A program made the translations under genes and the position numbers. From Octopus vulgaris (taxonomy: Eukaryota): a stretch of 64,000 bases of DNA. The stretch lies in contig OX597815.1 of NCBI GenBank assembly GCA_951406725.2, positions 97,092,001 through 97,156,000 on the forward strand. Direction: 5' to 3'. The notes under the pieces were generated by a model. That model was not told where the DNA came from, did no database searches, and saw nothing but the letters and a program-made list of their open reading frames with translations. Positions 5,817 through 57,620 of this stretch are shown piece by piece; positions within the stretch are counted from its first letter, which is position 1, and each line of letters opens with the position of its first letter.

Positions 5817-5821
<5 letters not shown>

Positions 5822-5913
<92 letters not shown>
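5822..5913 (+). repeat. (TAA)n microsatellite, target of the downstream element
   Basis: Directly visible. Confidence 0.95.
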
Positions 5914-5914
<1 letters not shown>

Positions 5915-6198
5915 TGACCAAAATAGATAGGAAAACAAGAAAAATAATGACAGGATCTAGGATGCATCACCCAAAATCTGACATAGAAAGACTATATATA
6001 TAAGGTATATAAGGTGGTAGAGGCTTAATACAGCTGGAAAACAACTATAAAATAACCACCATAGGACTGCAAAAATATCTACTTCAGAAGGAAGGAAAAC
6101 TGATACAAATAGCGGCAAAACACGAGCAAAACAAAAGACTGTTCTGAGTATTTAAGGAAGCTGACAAATACAAACAAGAAATCATACCACCTAATAAA

Positions 6199-6229
<31 letters not shown>

Positions 6230-7259
6230 AAGAAGAAGAAGAAGAAGGAGGAGGAGGAGGAGAAGAAGAAGAAGAAGAAGAAGAAGAAGAAGAAGAAGAA
6301 GAAGAAGAAGAAGAAGAAGAAGAAGAAACAACAAAAGCTATAAAACAAATGAAATCCAAAGTAAAAATAGAACAGCAACGAACCATGATAACATGATGGC
6401 AAGAAAAGCCCCTTCATGGTAAATACTGGACTAAACTAAACGCAAAAGAAATAGACAAACAAAAATCACAGCAATGGTTGAGAAGCTCAGAACTCAAAGC
6501 AGAGACAGAGAGATTTTTAATTGCAGCACAAGACCAAAGCCTCCCCACCAGAAATTACTAAAAACATGTAATGAAAAGAAATATAACAAGTAACTGCAGA
6601 CTATGTGGAGATGGACAAGAAACAATAAATCATATTATCTACTGCTGCCCATTCCTGGCTAAGAAGGATTATATTCACAAACATGACAGAGTTGGAACTT
6701 ACATACACTGGAAGCTATGCCAACATTATGGAATAACAACAGAAAAAAGATGGTATAGGCACACACCAGAAAAGGTCACAGAAAACGAGAAAGCAACCAT
6801 ACTCTGGAATATGCCGATACACATAGATAGAGAAATTAAGGCTAACAGACCAGATATAGTTGTCAGAGATCATGAAGAAAAAATGCTTTCTAATTGATGT
6901 ATCAATACCGGCAGATGACAACGTGTCTCTAAAAGAAATGGCGAAACTTTCAAAATACAAAGACCTGGAAATAGAGGTAACCAGAATGTGGAATCTAAAG
7001 ACAGAAACAATTCCTATCATAGTAGGTGCATTACGCATGATAAAAAAATATTCAGACAAATACATAACAAAAATACCAGGACTTACAAACACATATAACA
7101 TACAGAAAATTGCACTACTAAGCACCGCACACATCCTATGCAGAACACATTCCCTACAATAACCATCAGAGCATCACAACAAATCACAGCACACACCTAA
7201 GGCACACAGAGCTGCGCTCGGTAGTGAAGTGAAAGCACGCTATAAAAATAAAACTACTG
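5914..7259 (+). mobile_element. 5'-truncated R4/Dong-clade non-LTR retrotransposon (RT C-terminus, CCHC knuckle, RLE endonuclease, 3' UTR)
   Basis: HHPKSDIERLY..GGRGL; LIAAQDQSL; CRLCGDGQETINHIIYCC; HKHDRV; NRPDIVV..LIDVSIP..KLSKYKDL; IPIIVGAL. Frameshift near 6880; (TAA)n on both sides, matching Dong target specificity. Confidence 0.93.
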
Positions 7260-7284
7260 AATAATAATAATAATAATAATAATA

Positions 7285-7777
7285 ATGCCCTGATGCAGTA
7301 CCAGGCAGTGGCTATGCCCTGATGCAGTACCAGGCAGTGGCTATGCCCTGATGCAGTACCAGGCAGTGGCTATGCCCTGATGCAGTACCAGGCAGTGGCA
7401 ATGCCCTGATGCAGTACCAGGCAGTGGCTATGCCCTGATGCAGTACCAGGCAGTGGCTATGCCCTGATGCAGCACCAGGCAGTGGCTATGCCCTGATGCA
7501 GTACCAGGCAGTGGCAATGCCCTGATGCAGTACCAGGCAGTGACAATGCCCTGATGCAGTACCAGGCAGTGGCTATGCCCTGATGCAGTACCAGGCAGTG
7601 GCTATGCCCTGATGCAGTACCAGGCAGTGGCTATGCCCTGATGCAGTACCAGGCAGTGACCATGCCCTGATGCAGTACCAGGCAGTGGCTATGCCCTGAT
7701 GCAGTACCAGGCAGTGGCCATGCCCTGATGCAGTACCAGGCAGTGGCTATGCCCTGATGCAGTACCAGGCAGTGGCT
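7285..7777 (+). repeat. Tandem array of 17 x 29 bp (ATGCCCTGATGCAGTACCAGGCAGTGGCT), no spacers
   Basis: Counted by hand: 493 bp / 29 = 17 units; 11 match consensus and 6 are variant. Confidence 0.97.
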
Positions 7778-8278
7778 CTCATGGCTTCTTGTCTCATTGT
7801 TTTGTCTTGGTATAAAAGATGGGCTACAGCAAATATTCTGCTCAATACCACAGATTTGCGTGTCAGTTGTTTGACCTTAACCAGTTGAGCATGTCCCTTA
7901 GTGGCTGATGATATGTGCATCTCTGATCACGAGCAGAAGTAGTGGAGGAGCATCATAGCCATGTGTTGAGAGGGATTCTTTGGGGTTTGAATAATTCACC
8001 TCTGGAAACATGGGTGGTTTTTTCAACATCCTTAAACAACCCTTATTCAGGGACCGTTTGAGCGGGATGGGCTACTCAACCTGAAGAAAATTCTAACTGG
8101 GCCCCACTTGCAAGGTCATGTGCTGTTTATCTTGATATGAGATCACTATGTCGCGCACATTTGGTTGTGATGCATGTGCCTGGTGTACCCTTATCAGACG
8201 GGTAGTCATGATGGGTATATTGGGCTTCGTATATTTTACCCCAGTGTCACTTTGATGGCATGAACTGCTCTCTCACTC
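7285..8278. mobile_element. Non-coding element embedded in (TAA)n, probably a non-autonomous retroelement
   Basis: About 500 bp of complex, relatively GC-rich sequence with no ORF, bounded by (TAA)n on both sides; its terminal 29 bp is the array unit. Orientation uncertain. Confidence 0.65.
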
Positions 8279-14102: not shown

Positions 14103-15441
14103 TCATGCACTCTCATTTACATATGCGCACACATACATATGCATATAAATACAGACAGACAGGCATTATACTCTCATACAGTAAAAACTTTATGCCTGGT
14201 ATAACTTGTTGGTGACAATCAATACGGGGAATTCGACTGCTAATTGTGGTGTGACAAGATGGAAGCTTCCTAGTTATTTCAAGTTATATATTCTTATTTT
14301 TATTTATTTCACGATACTGAAAAAGAAAGAGCTACTGAGAGAAAGGGAGGGAGATAAAGTACCATTGACTATTAAAAAAAAACCAGACAGCTACAGAATG
14401 AAACCAGCAGAGATGATGCTTTAGTCACTTTTCTCATCCGGTATGTGGCGGAGGAGATAACTTTATGCAAGTATTAGTGTGAGTTGCATCCGTCGCTTCA
14501 TGTTCCTCTTTCACTGACACACATAATGCAGAATATTGAATTCCATTTTTGTGACAACGCCGCATATTTGTAAAGACAAAAAAAAAAAACGACCGAAAGG
14601 AATTGAGTCATATGACAGTGCAAAAATATTAATAAAACTATCGATCATTTCATGCGTGCAAGGCAAATATCAATTCTGTTGAATAGTGCAAAAATATGCA
14701 TAAAAGTATTGATCCTTTCATGGATGATGGCAAATAACACTCTGTTGACTTTATCTCAAAAGGTAAAAATATGTCACTAAGTACCGAAAGGCATTTAATT
14801 CAGCACAGTGCAAGCAATTACTGCTATGCCTTGGACCTAAAGCAAAATCGATCGCAGAGAGATGTGAACACGTTATGTAGCGAAACGAAGTTAAATACTG
14901 CAAGGTATTTACTACTACTACTACTTATGATGATGATGATGATGATGATCATGATCATCATCATCATCATCATCATCGTGGTAATAATATATTTATATAT
15001 ATATCTACTCTATGTGGAAATGAAAATGTTGGAATATTGGAAATAAGGAACGAAATATTGAACTCCAGATAGAAAAAGATAATCTATTGAAATATAGATA
15101 GAAAGAGATATTTTATGTGCAAGATATCTAAAATGTTTGAAATATCTAAAGAATGAAGCAATGGTTTTCGAATTAATCGACTGAATGAATGTCACTCAAA
15201 ATGCTTTCAGTTACGTTTCAACTGTTCTATTGTTGTGTGTGAGTGTGTGTGTGTGTGTGTTTGCGCGTGCCTGTGTGTGTGCGTGCATGTGTGTGTGTTT
15301 GTGTGTGCGTTTGTGTTTGTGTGTGGTATCACCTTTTATATACCATGTTTTTGCGTATGGAGAAACATTAAAGCTATTGTTATTCTAGCATTTTGAGTGT
15401 GCAAAATTATTAAAGCCATTTATCTCACAACCATAAGTATG

Positions 15442-22650: not shown

Positions 22651-22756
22651 GAACCCGCAATGTTTCTTCTTCTTCTTCTTCTTCTTCTTCTTCTTCTTCT
22701 TCTTCTTCTTCTTCTTCTTCTTCTTCTTCTTCTTCTTCTTCTTCTTCTTCTTCTTG

Positions 22757-23552
22757 TTAACCACACAGAATCTGCTGGAAAAAATAGTCGGGATTGGCTG
22801 ATGAAAGGAACACTAAAAAAAGAGACAGAGAGCACTATACTGGCAGAGCAAGAAAAAGCTTTGGCCATGAACTGGAGGTTCAAATTAAGGAGTGAGAAAG
22901 TGTTACCGCTGTGTGGGTGAAACCATTGCTCATATCACAAACGAATTCCCAAGACTTATCCGCAACCACTACAAGTTGTGGCGACACGACCAGGTAGCAA
23001 AAGTGCTACACTGGAAACTGTTCGACAAGTTGGAGATCAAAAGAGAGGCAGGACGTGATATGAGCACAAACCGCAGAGAATGGTGGAGTTGGAGACTTGC
23101 AAAATCCTCTGAGATTTCCCAATCGAAACCGATCAGATGCTAGATCATAACAGACCAGTCCTGTTGGTGGTGCACAAGATGCACCACATATGCTATATTG
23201 TTGATGTTGAAAGCCTATTTGACCCACGAATAGATAAGAAGGCGAAAAGATAGATAAATACAACCCTGTTATGTACAAATTAGCCCGGCTATGAAAAACT
23301 AAGAAAGTGAAGATAGTGCCAATTATTGATCTCAATAGTGTCAGAAGGCATTCAAGGGGACTATAAAGGAAATTGGAATAGATTGCCCAATAGAACTGTA
23401 ACAAAAGTTTTGCCTTCTTGGCACGGCCAGAATAATTATGAAAGTATTAGATAACTGAAAAGAATAGATAGCATGTTACCGAAGGGTGCATGTAGCAACC
23501 CCGTTACACATCTAAGTTCCAGGAGCTCCAACAAAACCTGTGATAAAGAGAA
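22757..23552 (+). mobile_element. Decayed R4/Dong-type 3' fragment (CCHC knuckle and RLE)
   Basis: DWLMKGTLKKETESTILAEQE; ETIAHITNE..WRHDQVAKVLHWKL; DFPIETDQMLDHNRP; CLLGTARII; ends in (TAA)n; preceded by (CTT)n at 22664-22755. Confidence 0.85.
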
Positions 23553-33109: not shown

Positions 33110-34300
33110 GAAAGCATTCTTTCTTTACTCTGTACCACATAATTACGGAAAAGTGGCTGAAAGAGTAGGAGAATTCAATGAGAAGGACGAACAGCAGAAT
33201 AAACAAATGGAAAGAAATAGAACTGCCTGACCATTACATACAACACACCGAGAATGCTGGAAGAGAACATACCTGGCTTTGGTTCATGAGTGGGAAATTT
33301 AAATGAGAAACAGAAACACTAATTTTGGCTTCTCCGGAAGATGCACCTTGAAGAAATCTGATAAGCTCATACATCAGCAAATCTCAGACACCAAATGTAG
33401 TAGTTGAAGGTAAGGAGACGAGAGTATCAATCGCATTTTCAGTGAGTGCAGTACACTAGTGCAACAGGAGTGAAATTGCAGATTCGTTTGTGTAGGCACA
33501 AAAATGCATGCAGATAATACCAATAGTAGCTTCAAAATTAGCAGAAGGCTTACAAATTTAAGTGAGGGGCAAGCATGTTCATTTAAGACCTAGTTATTTT
33601 ATCGTCGCCCAAATAACGTGAAGCAGAGAAATCTCAGCAGAATACGAACACAGCAATAACAACAACAACAGATAATAATAATAACAATAATAATAATAAA
33701 AGCAACAACAATAATAATTATAATAAATACAATAACAATAGCCCAAAACCTCTACTGACTAATATGCTATAAATATCGTTATAAGGTTACGAGTTCTTGG
33801 AAAACCTAATGGAAGAAAAGAGGAAGGAAGAAATCTTCTGGGATTTTTATTTACAGACAGACAAAGCGTTAGAGCAGCGAAGGCCGGTTATAGAAACCTT
33901 TAGGCGGGATAAACAAGACTGCGTAATAATCGACGAAGCAGTGCCAGCAGATCAACATATCATCATGAAGAAAAGAGAAAAAGTTGATAAATATGGAAAC
34001 CTGAGAATTGAGATCACTAGCATGTGGCAGCTACCAGAGTCGAACATAAAGGTTACCTCTATCGTCATCGGTGCATTGGGTTCATTACTACCCAATCTGA
34101 AAAAAAAACATCTGAAATTCTTAGTAATACTCTACAATCAAGATGTATTGCAAACATAGGCATTGCTTGGAACTGCACGTATATTGCATCAAATACTGTC
34201 TGCCTGAGGTCCTTCTTGAGACTTGACAAACACTACAAACCATCGTTAGACACAATATCTTCTAGCAACAAGCTCACGACATTGCATATTATGCGACGTT
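33110..34300 (+). mobile_element. Decayed R4/Dong-type 3' portion, interrupted at about 33480-33780
   Basis: TWLWFMSGKFK*ETETLILA; IFWDFYLQTDKALEQRRP..IIDEAVP..KREKVDKYGNL..IVIGALG; ALLGTARIL; ends in (TAA/TAG)n. Confidence 0.85.
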
Positions 34301-34322
34301 TATAATAGTAATAGTAATAGTA

Positions 34323-34378
<56 letters not shown>

Positions 34379-34399
34379 GATGATGATGATGATGATGAT

Positions 34400-35115
34400 G
34401 ATGATGGATATGAAGTATGGTTAATGAAAGTTGGGTAAGAAATAGTGAGTGAAAAACACCCAGATCTAAATATCAACAAATGCATTAATGAGTAAAGTGT
34501 GAGAGAAAATGCCGAATTGGAAGGGCCCAGGATCAAATTTAGTTCAAGAGTACTGGCTAAAGAAATTCAGTAGTTTAAATGGGAAACTGAGGAAACAACT
34601 TCAGAATTGCACTAATGGAGAAATAGTACCAGATTGGATGACTAAAAGGAGGACAATACTCATAATAAAAGATACGAGCAACGGTAATACAGCTAGCAAT
34701 TATACACCAATCACTTGCTTGTCATTAATGTGGAAGCTGTTAAGTGGAAGCTATAAACGAGAATTTAATGTTAGAAAAACAAAAAGGTTGCAGGAAGAAG
34801 GGTAGAAGAACGCATGAACTATTATACATAGACCAATCAGTTCTAAAAGAAGTAAAAGCTGAAAAGAAAAATCCAGCATAGTTTAGATAGATTATAGGAA
34901 AGTCTATGACATGATCCCACACTCAAGGATCAGTGAGTCTGAGTATATTCAGTATGACAGACAAAATAAGAGAATTAATTAGCTTTATCATGAAGAAACG
35001 GAAAGTAGTTCTCTACTCAGGTGACACAGTCTTAGGGAAAGTTAATATCAAGGGAGGAATTTTCCAGTGGCACTCGTCCCATTTAATATTTGTCTTATGT
35101 TTGAACGCACTCAGT
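34400..35115 (+). pseudogene. R4/Dong-type reverse transcriptase fragment (domains 0-4)
   Basis: MPNWKGPG..YWLKKF; NYTPITCLSLMWKLLSG; QKGCRK; DYRKVYDMIPHS; GIFQ..LIFVLCLNAL. Confidence 0.9.
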
Positions 35116-35900
35116 TTTGTCTCTCGGATTTTCCTTCTGCATCTCTTCTCTTCCACTGGCTGTTTGTCATTCATCTAGTTATACACACAACTAGATGTTA
35201 GTCCAGTTATCAACTTTCACATCACCAGAGGCAGACAGGAGATAAGCCGGTAATGAGCCACTACATTAACATTACTTGATGCGTTTGTCAAAGAACCGTT
35301 TTACTTATGGTCAGCCACTTTGCGATGTCCGCTCCGTTGTCGATCACTTTATCCATTTGCGCAGTTATTCTTTTGCGTTGTGCCAGGAAATTTTTTCCAT
35401 CAATACCATTGTACCCCATCCGAGTTTGGGCATTTCCAGCTCATGATCCCGGTTGTCTGCTCGATCACCATTTTAGCTACTATTGTTATATTAAACCTGT
35501 TTCACTGCATATTTCTCCGATCTTAATTCCGTCAACCATGCAGCGTCTTTGTTGTGCTTTCTTCTATTATCCCAGATATTGGAACAAAACCTTGATTTTA
35601 TATTATCGAATTCTTTGGTAATATTATTTCATTTTTGTAGCAGTCTTAGTTTCAGCTTTTGAAAGACTACATTTAGCCTCGTAAAATCTCGTGATTTTTA
35701 TCCTATAACTACTTTCGAGACCTTGATATTTCTCCTTGATGATTTCACCTTATTTCTTTCTTCCGAAGGTTTTGATATATTTTCGTTGCTCGTTCATTGA
35801 TTGTTTTATCATTCGTTTCCGCTAAGGCTCTTTTCCCGCAATTTCTTTTTTTATATTATTGCTTCACCGCTCGGATTATTAGCTCTGTATCCAATATATC
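35115..35900 (-). pseudogene. Second R4/Dong-type RT N-terminal fragment in opposite orientation
   Basis: Minus strand: FCSNIWDN; MSWKCPNSDGVQWY*WKKF; HYRLISCLPL; EEKRCRRKIRETK. Confidence 0.8.
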
Positions 35901-43779: not shown

Positions 43780-44192
43780 GCAGCGAGCTGGTAGAATCGT
43801 TAGCACGCCGAGAGAAATGCTTAGCGGTATTTCGCGTACCGCTACGTTCTGAGTTCAAATTCCGCCGAGGTCGACTTTCCCTTTCATCATTTCGGGGTCG
43901 ATTGCATAAGTACCAGTTACGCACTGGGGTCGATAAAATCGACTTAATCCGTTTGCCTGTCCTTGTTTGTCTTCTCTGTGTTTAGCCCCTTGTGGGTAGT
44001 AAAGAAATAGGTATTTCGTCTGCCCTTACGTTCTGAGTTGAAATTCCGTCGGGATCGACTCTGCCTTTCATCCTTCCGGGGTCGATTAAATAAGGACCAG
44101 TTACGCACTGGGATCGAAAAAATCGATTTAATCCGTTGTCTTTCCTTGTTTGTCCCCTCTGTGTGTAGCCCCATGCGGGCAGTAAAGAAATA
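43780..44192 (+). mobile_element. Dimeric SINE (full monomer plus headless second monomer)
   Basis: Junction AAAGAAATAG|GTATTTCGTCTGCC at 44010; 12-bp flanking direct repeat AGAAACTGAAAG (43768-43779 / 44193-44204). Confidence 0.9.
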
Positions 44193-46637: not shown

Positions 46638-47210
46638 AGGCAGTGAGCCGGCAGAATTGTTAGCAGCTCCGAAGGCGGCGTGCTGGCAGAAACGTTAGCA
46701 CGTCGGGCGAAATGCTTAGCGGTATTTCGTCTGCCGTTATGTTCTGAGTTCAAATTACACCGAGGTCGACTTTGCCTTTCATCCTTTCGGGGTCGATTAA
46801 ATAAGTACCAGTTACGCACTGGGGTTGATATAATCGACTTAATCTGTTTGTCTGTCCTTGTTTCGGTGTTTAGCCCCTTGTTGGTTGTAAAGAAATAGGT
46901 ATTTCGTCTGCCGTTACCATCTGAGTTCAAATTCCGCCGAGGTCGACTTTGCCTTTCATCTTTTCGGAGTATATAAATGAAGTACCTGTTACGTATTGGG
47001 GTCGATGTAATCGACATAATCCGTTTGTCTGTCCTTGTTTGTCCCCTCTATGTTTAGCCCCTTGTGGGTAATAAAAAATAAAAATTGTTAGCATGTCAGG
47101 TAAAATGCTTGGCGACATTTAGTCCGAATTTACGTTTTGTGTTCAAATTCCGCAGAGGTAGACTTTGTGTTTTATCATTTCGGGGTCGATAAAAAAATAA
47201 TTACCAGTCG
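46638..47210 (+). mobile_element. Dimeric SINE (46666-47082) nested inside an older SINE
   Basis: 11-bp TSD AATTGTTAGCA (46655-46665 / 47083-47093) splits the host SINE head from its body; dimer junction identical to that at 44010. Confidence 0.9.
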
Positions 47211-49599: not shown

Positions 49600-50903
49600 C
49601 ATTATTCTGTTTATTTAAAAATTTGCTGCCAACAGAGAAAGGACAAGTTTATGACCTAGATTCAAGGCTCTTTCGTTGGAATTTCAACAATAACAACACG
49701 GTATTTTTGATTGTATGTATGCATGTATGCATGTGTGTATGCATATATGTATGTATGTATGTACATATTTGTATGTTTTATGTATGTATTTTCATGCATA
49801 TCTAGATATTCTCATATATATTTAAATGATAAACTTCTAGAAAGTTTTACGCATTTTTACAGTTCCAGCGATGGGTTGGATCTGTAGACTTCGAACTGGC
49901 TTTCTCCTCTCTGGTTTGATAAATCTAATTTCTCAAGATTAGTATTTAAGCAGTGTGTTACATATCCCAGGAACCCAATAACTACAGGTATAAATCTGAT
50001 CTTGTAATCTGGAGAGAGTAACTCCAGATTTCTCAATAATTCAGCATAAGTATTCTCTTTTTCACTGATCTTCAGCTTTATGTTAACATCCGCTGGGTAG
50101 CTAATTTCTACAACTATTCACAGTTTCTCTTCTCTATCCCAAAACATTATGTCAGGTTTGTTGTGCTTACATTTTTTGAGGTCTTCATTGGTACATTCCA
50201 CCAGGATTCCTTTTTATTATGAGTGGCTATGGCTTCTACCATATTGTGGGTTCCTGTTTATTTGTCCTCGGGATTATTCTTCCGACGGAATTCCTTATAG
50301 AGTGTCCTAGCTACAACCTCATATCACATCTGTAGATTACACCGTGATTACATTTTCGGACAACTGCTTATAATGTGGGTGATATCTTCTGGGTGAAATC
50401 AACAAAGTTTGCAACGGTTGTCACACTTCACGGCTTTATCTGCATCAATATCTCTTTTGTGGTTGATATTTCCTGTTCATGGATTGCAAACGCATACCCT
50501 TCCAAGTGGGAGGTAGTAATCCAGCTGTTGGTCCATGATAAGCCGCTTTGATGACCGATGTTACTATCATCACGGAGCTTTCTACTGACATATCCATGCA
50601 TAGTCTTCTGCTCATATAGACTCATCCTTTCATCTGATGATATGTTGCTGTAGAGTTGTGCGAATTATTTGGGCATGTATTCTAGGAAATCAGACAAAGA
50701 GTGTTGCTGAAGGAGCTGCCTTCCAAGTCTTATGATGTTACCAGCCTCATGTATGCAAAATTGGTCAAGGGGTGCACATCGACACTTGGTGGTTAAAAGA
50801 TGTTGATGAAGAGATATGATGCGACATTCAAATGCATTTTGGATCAATGTTAAACGTCTTCCACCTTGTTTTTGTCTTCGATAGACGCGGTCTACATCAC
50901 TGT
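49600..50903 (-). mobile_element. 5'-truncated R4-like RLE non-LTR retrotransposon embedded in (TACA)n
   Basis: SDVDRVYRRQKQGGRRL; MHGYVSR; LEGYAFAIHEQEI; CKLC*FHPEDITHIISSC; KPDIMFWDRE..VVEISYP..EKENTYAEL; IPVVIG. (CATA)n lies at both ends on the sense strand. Confidence 0.88.
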
Positions 50904-53589: not shown

Positions 53590-54646
53590 AGTAGTTGCGT
53601 TGGTCAGATATAGGGCGTCCATCCTCATTTGGGCTAAGGAGAAAATATCAACACTTGATAGAAGGGCGAGAAAGTTGATGACGCTGCATGGGGTGCTACA
53701 CCCTAAAGCAAACATTGACAGACTGGTATATGAAAAAATGAATGGTGGCAGAGGACTAATTAGTATAGACCATTATATAATGAGAGCACTTGCCGGGTAT
53801 TTGATAAATAGTGATGCAGACCTGCTGCAATATGCCGCGAAAGATATTGCTGTAAATGCAGGTAAAATGATGGGAAAGGAAACGTTGAACAAAAGAGCTA
53901 AGGAGAAGAGAAAAGAAGACCTTCTTGAAATGAGAATGCATGGACAGTTTGAAAGTAATACAGAGGACGTTAAGAATAATACAGCATCGTGGGCATGGCT
54001 TATGCGTGGTGATTTGCAGCGTATCAGCGACAGCCTGATCATTGCTGCACAAGAACAGGTTTGTCCTACCAATATAATAAACTATAATAGCTATAAAACT
54101 TCTGATACCCAGAAATGCAAACTCTGTTGAAAGTGTGTGGAAAATGTGACCCACTTGGTAAGGGGATGTGAGAGACTTGCACAAACAGGATACAAGAGCC
54201 TTGCTCAAAGTTATGCAGGAGGAGGGAAAAGTAAGGATACTCGGGGACTATGATTTTCAGACGGATCGTTTTATAGAACACCGTCGGTCGGATATTGTTA
54301 TACTGAGTAAAATACACAAATACTGTCAGATCATTGATGCAGCCATACCAAATGACATGAATGTTGTGAGTAAAGTGGTTGAAAAAATCACCAAATACTC
54401 TGAAATGAAAGTGGAAATGGCAAGTCATACCAGTGGTGATCGGAGCATTGGGCTGAATTCCACTGAGATTTCAAGACTTCTTAAGGCAGCTGGAAATCCC
54501 AAGCAAGATTGATGTCTTGTAAAAAGCAGCCTTATCGAGCAGAGCGCACACCTTATGGAAAGTATTTCTGTCTGAGGTTCTTATCGTAACTTGACAGATG
54601 ACTAAAGCCTCTGGTGCATTTTACCTACACAGTGTTACGAAGGAAT
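53590..54646 (+). mobile_element. 5'-truncated R4/Dong-type element
   Basis: LDRRARKLMTLHGVLHPKANIDRL..GGRGLISI; MHGQF; LIIAAQEQ; CKLC; DFQTDRFIEHRRSDIV..IIDAAIP..EKITKYSEM; TAA tracts at both ends. Confidence 0.92.
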
Positions 54647-54665
54647 AACAACAACAACAAAAAAA

Positions 54666-54707
<42 letters not shown>

Positions 54708-54708
54708 C

Positions 54709-54751
<43 letters not shown>

Positions 54752-54754
54752 TAA

Positions 54755-55130
54755 GACTAAAACAATACCTGTTGTCATAGGTGCCCTGGGAATGATAGCA
54801 AAAGGGGCTGATAGCTACCTAACTCAGATACCAGGAAACCCAAAAATGGCAGAAGTTCAAAAGATAGTGCTCATGGGAACTGCTCATATCCTACGCAAAA
54901 TACTCTCTATGTAATCTCAAGGTTTAAAACAAACATAATTTTCGGTTTAAAGGAAGGAAAAAAAAAGAAAAAAACTTTTTTTTTTTAGACATTCATTAGT
55001 ACAACATCCCCACCCCCCAAATATATGGCACACTAGGCATAACAACAACATCCAACCCTGTTGTCTCTTGAGGTCTCTGGGTGAAACTTGGAGCCAACTT
55101 GTACAAATATAAAGCAAAAGTCAAACATAG
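54755..55130 (+). mobile_element. Young-looking 3' fragment of another R4/Dong-type family
   Basis: Uninterrupted TKTIPVVIGALGMIAKGADSYLTQIPGNPKMAEVQKIVLMGTAHILRKILSM* plus 3' UTR; (TAA)n on both sides. Confidence 0.88.
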
Positions 55131-56699: not shown

Positions 56700-57620
56700 A
56701 CCTCTGTGGTATATTTTAAGTTGGGTAAAGGAATAAATTATCTTTTGACAGGAGACGTGCTTAGAATGTAAGCTTCAATGGGCAGTGTTAAGATGCCCAA
56801 ACCCCAAATGACCAAATAAAATTGACAGATAATTTAAAGCTACCACCGAAGAGCAAGAACGATTAATGACGTTTCAGTTATGTTCTTGTAAATGAAATTT
56901 CTGACAAGGAAGCTTTGCCTGCCACTAGACTAGGAAAGACCAGTATTTTACGCAGTAGTAATAAACAAACAAACATGTAATTTCGAAGTGAATTCTTCAA
57001 ATACAAGGGCCATTACTGCACTCTATCGATTATGACATTTAGTGTTCTGATATTGGCGAATTGTAAAATAGTCAAATGACTATGAATATTGGTGACTTAT
57101 AATATAGTCAAATCTGTATGAATAAAAGGAGAATATATCTTTGCAATGATGGACGTCAACAATGTACTCACAGCATTTGAAAAGAATATTGCGTTCCAAT
57201 ACTATACATATCAATAGTATGTACATCAATAATATACAGTTTGGGTTCAAGTATCAATAATCAATTTTGTTACTTATTATGTTATTCTAGTTTTTAAATG
57301 ATGTCGCTACGTAGCTCTATGAAGTAAAATTATTTGTAACAAAAGTAGAACAAACCGAGGCTGTTTTCACTGGCGAAGGTGTCTGAGGTATAATTTTTAT
57401 GGAAGAAGCGGAGACTTATGCGTAAGGGTCGTAGTACAATGTAATCAACTGAGGGTTAGTTAGGAATGAGAAGTAGTTGTTATACCTTAGATATACAAAG
57501 GATTTGATAAACTAGTCTATAAATTAAAACTCAATCAATGACAGGCAGAGTCCGTAACAATGTAAAGCTTCTTGAAAACTTAGTAAATTCTATGGTGGAG
57601 TGAGACAGTATGTTCTTTAT
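56700..57620 (-). mobile_element. Very old PLE RT-thumb-like remnant
   Basis: Traces TIEFT, LYYDPY, VCST and FKTR in the expected order; heavily frameshifted. Confidence 0.35.

Follow-up and report, generated by a model that had tools for sequence, protein, structure and literature searches.

The locus

We begin by considering a 64,000-nucleotide stretch of the Octopus vulgaris genome (GCA_951406725.2, contig OX597815.1, positions 97,092,001 to 97,156,000 of the forward strand), referred to here as the window. Analysis of the window finds at 7285-7777 a tandem array of 17 units of 29 bp, the last of which, unit 17, continues into the body of a non-coding element; both points had been put forward in the original prediction, which was made from the letters alone. 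The element and its array have (AAT)n on each flank, and upstream is a broken LINE reduced to its 3' third. The features of the locus are the following.

5820..5913, + strand: (TAA)n tract preceding the LINE fragment
5912..7259, + strand: broken, 5'-truncated Dong/R4-like LINE copy, 95% identical to L244, a copy with an intact ORF
7260..7284, + strand: (AAT)n tract, the tail of the upstream LINE and the target of the element
7285..7748, + strand: the array proper, in which the first 29 bases of the element are repeated 16 extra times in tandem
7749..8278, + strand: body of a non-coding retroelement of 558 bp with (TAA)n as its target, the first 29 bases being unit 17; 519 of 530 aligned bases match copy L016
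8279..8299, + strand: (AAT)7, a 3' tail or target remnant; the same right end is found in 30 of 30 loci compared

The body in the window is 530 bp long and carries a 26-bp deletion about 45 bases from the element start. The LINE fragment at 5912..7259 comprises the CCHC finger and restriction-like endonuclease part together with the 3' UTR, and within this broken copy, at 6200-6327, a short poly-Glu coding run has expanded to a (GAA)n microsatellite of about 43 units. Elsewhere in the window there are older fragments of other restriction-like-endonuclease LINEs (22756-23208, 33788-35163, 49959-50177 and 53597-54911), which are 25-55% identical to P0001, the protein of the neighbouring LINE, and several of which lie beside (TAA)n. 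Two diverged two-copy tandem repeats, of 68 and 36 bp (14620-14748 and 57050-57124), are unrelated to the element, and an abundant tRNA-like SINE with internal tandem units of about 177-184 bp is present at 43780-44192 and 46673-47040.

Within the array the differences between units are concentrated at the unit ends. The modal tail is GCT, while units 4 and 8 end in GCA, unit 9 in ACA, unit 13 in ACC and unit 15 in GCC; unit 7 has a single internal T>C. This matches exactly the earlier count of five variant units among six that differ only in their last three nucleotides. The final 3 of the 29 positions hold 7 of the 8 substituted bases (binomial P = 9e-7), or 3 of 4 when each distinct change is counted once (P = 0.004). 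The GCA tails are 4 units apart and the AC- tails likewise (chance about 0.09), a spacing that could reflect a later duplication of 4 units.

The inserted element and the neighbouring LINE

The genome searched amounts to 2.8 Gb in 227 contigs. Exact matches to the 558-bp element number 3,881 for the left-end 34-mer, 4,352 for the right end and 14,887 for an internal 16-mer. Among copies sampled by the right end, 13 of 30 are shortened on the left, while 28 of 30 sampled by the left end extend to the right end. Target-primed reverse transcription leaves just this polarity, left truncation with an intact right end, and the array accordingly marks the 5' end, the placement that the original prediction had preferred. 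Nearly all copies sit in (TAA)n, and the element has the traits of a SINE: it is short, non-coding and high in copy number, with a fixed 3' end bearing a simple-repeat tail and with 5' truncation. A head derived from tRNA, 5S or 7SL RNA was looked for, with no relevant Rfam match and no tRNA found; a crude descriptor for an HDV-like ribozyme did no better than on shuffles, and in this search for a ribozyme or known RNA head the first 160 nt gave a folding z of -1.3. Because none of these signatures is present, we call the element SINE-like only. One 5'-truncated copy (L185) is preceded by an inverted piece of the element, resembling snap-back or twin priming.

We turn our attention to the LINE. 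Its copy L244 has one ORF of 1,227 aa with a Pfam RVT_1 match (E 1.5e-31), and against solved structures the protein matches R2 proteins only, from residue 449. The C-terminal part of P0001 holds the motifs CRIC..HIISSC and RPDIVV..LID, which we take to be a CCHC finger and a PD..D restriction-like endonuclease; zf-RVT scores below its cut-off. No Pfam family of an N-terminal zinc finger or Myb domain matches at E 0.1, and the absence of such domains is a difference of Dong/R4 from R2. The LINE insertions are flanked by (TAA)n, which is the target of Dong (PMC3812793). By architecture and target the LINE fits the Dong/R4 clade, although no named R4/Dong protein is among the 120 matches listed for it. 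The 5' UTR of the LINE (L244, L246) resembles the start of Bombyx mori Dong, as given by a primer in PMC3774820, about 44 bases inside the LINE 5' end.

A (TAA)n target and a single ORF with reverse transcriptase (RT) and C-terminal endonuclease are thus shared with the Dong described in passages of PMC3812793, PMC13282606 and PMC9115989. The pertinent passages of the latter two report Dong-R4 families in octopus genomes and mention no 5' arrays. B. mori Dong has a 5' HDV-like ribozyme (a passage of PMC3774820); none was detected in the octopus LINE, where there is no relevant Rfam match and the crude descriptor found none. Does the element share its 3' end with the LINE? The best local score between them, for this LINE family, is 14, equalled by 661 of 1,000 shuffles. 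With no detectable end sequence in common, only the shared target and behaviour link the element to the enzyme of this LINE.

Arrays across the genome

The window array is one of hundreds that stand at the 5' end of retrotransposon insertions in this genome. The 5'-terminal 16-mer of the element has 9,336 occurrences and forms 880 tandem junctions (gap up to 30), compared with 43 of 14,887 occurrences for an internal 16-mer and 3 junctions genome-wide for the 3'-terminal one. An array unique to this locus, the outcome that would have spoken against the original prediction, is therefore not what we see, and independent loci have arrays with the same start register and variable junction bases, as had been anticipated. 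All 20 loci with arrays of the internal 16-mer were fetched: in 19 the array abuts a microsatellite at the insertion's left end, mostly in 5'-truncated copies, and the remaining one (L226) is an internal duplication. Arrays, then, form wherever the 5' junction falls. Inheritance of the arrays from a master copy is rejected as their main source, since truncated copies bear arrays at their own break points. Only a minority of element copies carry arrays, as none of 30 copies sampled by the 5' end has one.

The neighbouring LINE family shows 5' arrays as well, which upholds the earlier proposal of a Dong/R4 link. Its 5'-terminal 16-mer gives 442 tandem junctions against 185 full-length ends. A hand count on contig 1 finds at least 2 copies at 17 of 22 full-length LINE 5' ends, with a maximum of 26, and truncated LINE copies have arrays at their break points at 4 of 4 loci in one set and 4 of 4 in another.

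An unrelated tRNA-like SINE (45,321 exact 16-mers), which inserts outside (TAA)n with ordinary target duplications, was intended as a negative control and is not negative: it has 121 tandem junctions among the 45,321 occurrences, with units of 17-45 nt in the 5'-terminal arrays L333-L342. The arrays are thus not exclusive to Dong-type insertions, although this SINE makes them about 35 times less often than the 558-bp element.

Host repair probably completes the 5' junctions of non-LTR retrotransposons. A host polymerase, through iterative templated insertion of the polymerase-theta kind, might build the array in the course of connecting the cDNA end with the target; the arrays of the unrelated SINE speak for this, and a passage of PMC11331408 allows a cellular polymerase as the source of extra bases. 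Nevertheless, we consider such an origin improbable given the roughly 35-fold gap in rate between families of one genome, arrays that attain 26-70 copies, inserted bases that track the element (see below), and the avoidance of microhomology registers.

This avoidance is seen in the lengths of the units. Unit length in the element's arrays is near-constant within a locus and differs between loci, up to 138 nt. At 68 loci, drawn from the first 100 of 420 rows, it is 17-19 nt in 36 and 28-31 nt in 14, and below 17 nt in only 1; the registers with the best microhomology, 8 and 32 nt, are used by none of the 68. A fixed unit species of 26-29 nt, as first envisaged, has accordingly given way to a length set at each locus. 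The peaks near 18 and 29 nt differ by 11, which is one turn of an RNA-DNA helix, and this may be taken as a speculative hint of phased nuclease cuts.

There was also a concern whether the arrays might be produced by the assembly or by long reads. The window array is known here from the assembly, and L291 has many homopolymer length differences that are possibly read errors. Arguing against an artefact, short-read contigs from four runs labelled as four organisms contain joints that go back to element base 1 (a joint with a 33-nt unit in X1, X4, X8 and X11, one with a 138-nt unit in X1, X4 and X8), and such a joint is found in X9, putatively an RNA run, too; moreover, the arrays are confined to element ends. 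An artefact is in our view scarcely credible. Runs X23 and X24 contributed 7 and 52 reads on a single-unit element copy, too few to use. The joints at positions 33 and 138 of the element (numbered on L016) recur across runs of different organisms with different inserted bases, which suggests either preferred RNA cut sites or shared old loci.

Anatomy of the junctions

About 130 loci were read, with contigs 1-4 and units of 29 bp over-represented. The parsed set comprises 338 units in 76 element arrays, about half of which were selected for their similarity to the 29-mer, and 160 units in 36 LINE arrays. In 39 element arrays, mismatches to the modal unit of the array fall on 44 of 597 positions within the final 3 bases and on 84 of 4,778 outside them, or on 37 of 552 and 83 of 4,388 when the window array is left out. 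The LINE arrays give 8 of 171 in the last 3 bases and 16 of 1,132 elsewhere, and 56 of 120 units are off the modal length. The junction-focused variation first noticed in the window is therefore not an even spread, with the reservation that units within one array are not independent, so that the P values overstate the significance.

The inserted bases themselves differ between the families. Next to the element start, the inserted base is G in 24 of 32 distinct cases for the LINE and in 6 of 64 for the element; as both families sit in (TAA)n, the inserted bases follow the element and not the target. Copying of a cap would explain the extra G of the LINE, but untemplated addition does so equally well and Dong RNA may be cut by a ribozyme.

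The next question is "in what order were the units laid down?" Outermost copies lack bases that inner copies hold in 19 of 37 LINE arrays and 7 of 48 element arrays. Inner junctions must then predate the final join, and the arrays were built mostly before the 5' join. Re-nicking of a finished junction, a target duplication without insertion, is ruled out by the same inner copies. The unit adjacent to the body has a changed tail in 34 element arrays and 7 LINE arrays; an outer unit reverts to the template in 12 and 1 of these, respectively, some of the changed tails being old point mutations.

These results bear on the ordinary explanation of a minisatellite, in which one chance duplication at or after insertion is expanded by replication slippage and unequal exchange. 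According to a passage of PMC9659126, minisatellites are known to arise from transposons, and there are signs of such expansion: higher-order patterns in L230 (where units alternate between 85 and 87 bp, like a duplicated dimer), L063 and L082, the 38 near-identical units of L093, and perhaps the 4-unit period of the window array. Identical junction types also adjoin each other more often than chance would give: for the LINE, 35 against 24.8 expected (P = 0.005), and for the element, 58 against 49.3 with L082 and L063 (P = 0.009) but 35 against 32.5 without them, the window array itself having 5 against 6.1. This clustering means either that the rounds were not fully independent or that later duplication occurred, and together with the alternation in L230 it indicates that later duplication contributes. 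As the origin of the arrays, however, this process is most improbable: it cannot yield inner copies with bases missing at the outer junction, and it does not predict the 4-fold excess of changes at unit ends, the one-base junction differences within LINE arrays (the units off modal length given above), or arrays at 5' ends with almost none at 3' ends.

Among arrays with at least 3 copies (n = 89, with merged units dropped and L004 left out), 15 have a length step of at least 4, and 14 of the 15 shorten away from the body. Starts are nested in L093, L173, L221, L223 and L224. Proceeding outward, the units of L223 cover 1-138, then 80-138, then about 93-111, and L093 has its 38 units from base 1 and, outside them, about 30 from base 7-10. 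In L020 an internal fragment is present twice upstream of base 1. Two arrays, L316 and L333 of the control SINE, have a longer unit further out. Outward shrinkage would result from any mechanism in which units are appended on the outer side, and is not specific to an RNA template.

A rival process, which would likewise act at insertion, is repeated restarting of the second strand. The upstream target end would prime on the cDNA, copy 17-30 bases up to a barrier such as remaining RNA, release, add untemplated bases and return to the cDNA's free 3' end, so that the template is DNA and the direction is opposite. It accounts for the fixed start at any 5' end and for truncated outermost copies, it fits the purine-rich inserted bases on the sense strand, and if the RNA barrier receded, the longer units would lie close to the body. 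On the other hand, it demands repeated homology-free landing at one internal position followed by a shift to base 1, as L093, L221 and L223 would require, and it leaves the repeated internal fragment of L020 without account. We judge it unlikely, though it deserves more weight than the two alternatives of host repair and slippage.

Mechanism

The explanation that we consider best, and regard as probable, is repeated end-to-end template jumping onto a short 5' fragment of the RNA that has just been copied. Target-primed reverse transcription would reach the RNA's 5' end, and a nuclease, probably host RNase H, would cut the RNA behind the enzyme, at a distance of 17-31 nt or sometimes more, leaving a short fragment with a free 3' end. 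The RT would append 0-4 untemplated bases to the cDNA, jump end-to-end to the 3' end of the fragment, copy it again, and repeat the cycle; its reuse would require the release of an 18-30-nt RNA from its cDNA. Further trimming of the fragment would give shorter, nested outer units, and the last cDNA end would be joined to the upstream (TAA)n, often with loss of a few bases. Some arrays may have been lengthened later by slippage or unequal exchange.

A fragment with a fixed 3' end would provide the constant length at each locus, the altered unit ends, the nested shrinking and the floor of 17 nt, which may represent the footprint of the enzyme. The required activities have precedents: the RT of R2 appends 2-5 bases without a template and makes serial jumps from one template to another (PMC8594491, PMC11371274), and in the structure of a group II intron RT an overhang pairs with the 3' terminus of the acceptor (bioRxiv 10.1101/2021.05.13.443781). 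The dimer pattern of L230, the clustering of junction types and the longer outer units of L316 and L333 count against the RNA model. The original prediction, that the array was written at insertion by an RT recopying a short terminal RNA, is thus supported in what it foretold for the genome, while we infer the RNA as template and the RT of this LINE as the putative enzyme.

A stronger version of the template-jumping model can be put forward tentatively, at somewhat less than even chances. A Dong/R4-type RT would have processive repeat addition in vivo, cycling on the RNase-cut 5' RNA fragment at most insertions, and the array would serve as a sacrificial buffer: the final join would trim the outermost copy, and an inner copy would keep the 5' end intact.

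Comparison with known systems

Template jumping as published resembles the octopus arrays in that untemplated bases at the cDNA end precede a jump to the free 3' end of a template, and in that serial jumps give head-to-tail copies with variable junctions. The published cases are multimers made in vitro with template in excess, or junctions seen rarely in cells (tandems of whole templates, the U6 'extra template'), whereas in the octopus a short 5' piece of the inserted molecule recurs 2-70 times in natural genomic insertions, and does so at the majority of full-length LINE ends on the contig that was counted. The 5' junctions of R1 and R2 in arthropods are described in passages of PMC2718515 and PMC3774820 as having untemplated bases, microhomologies and duplications; the duplications in these passages are single copies of the upstream 28S target carried in the RNA, or tandems of whole elements, and not arrays of the element's own 5' bases.

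Telomerase and the bacterial DRT2 are alike in that an RT copies one RNA segment repeatedly into tandem DNA, as given in passages of PMC12039810. According to the same passages, both have a dedicated RNA, fixed template limits and a realignment sequence; in the octopus arrays the limits vary from locus to locus, homology registers are avoided and the junctions are error-prone. The telomerase-like route first suggested therefore does not hold in detail, the best microhomology registers of 8 and 32 nt being unused.

Minisatellites from the 5' end of Alu are known, and SINE-derived minisatellites are usually ascribed to slippage between short repeats after insertion. Alu- and B1-derived minisatellites (a passage of PMC9659126) are similar to the present arrays in taking their unit from a SINE, but the evidence here points to an origin at insertion. 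In the openly accessible literature, as covered through keyword passages, we found no account of insertion junctions at which the element's own 5' bases form an array.

Biological meaning

The arrays are a real, genome-wide feature and probably a form of the known template jumping. They bear on how non-LTR retrotransposons complete the 5' junction, as they look like a frame-by-frame record at hundreds of loci in which the ordered changes at unit ends report on the ends of the RNA and the cDNA. They would also give a concrete route to the birth of a minisatellite in a single event, and they make the RT of the LINE a natural enzyme candidate for repeat-addition activity. For gene-insertion tools of the R2 type the matter is of relevance because such junction products would be unwanted. 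If the stronger version of the model is true, processive repeat addition by Dong/R4 would be a third kind of repeat synthesis by an RT, beside telomerase and DRT2 and in the lineage nearest to telomerase, and the arrays would be a record of the intermediates of the 5' junction at hundreds of loci.
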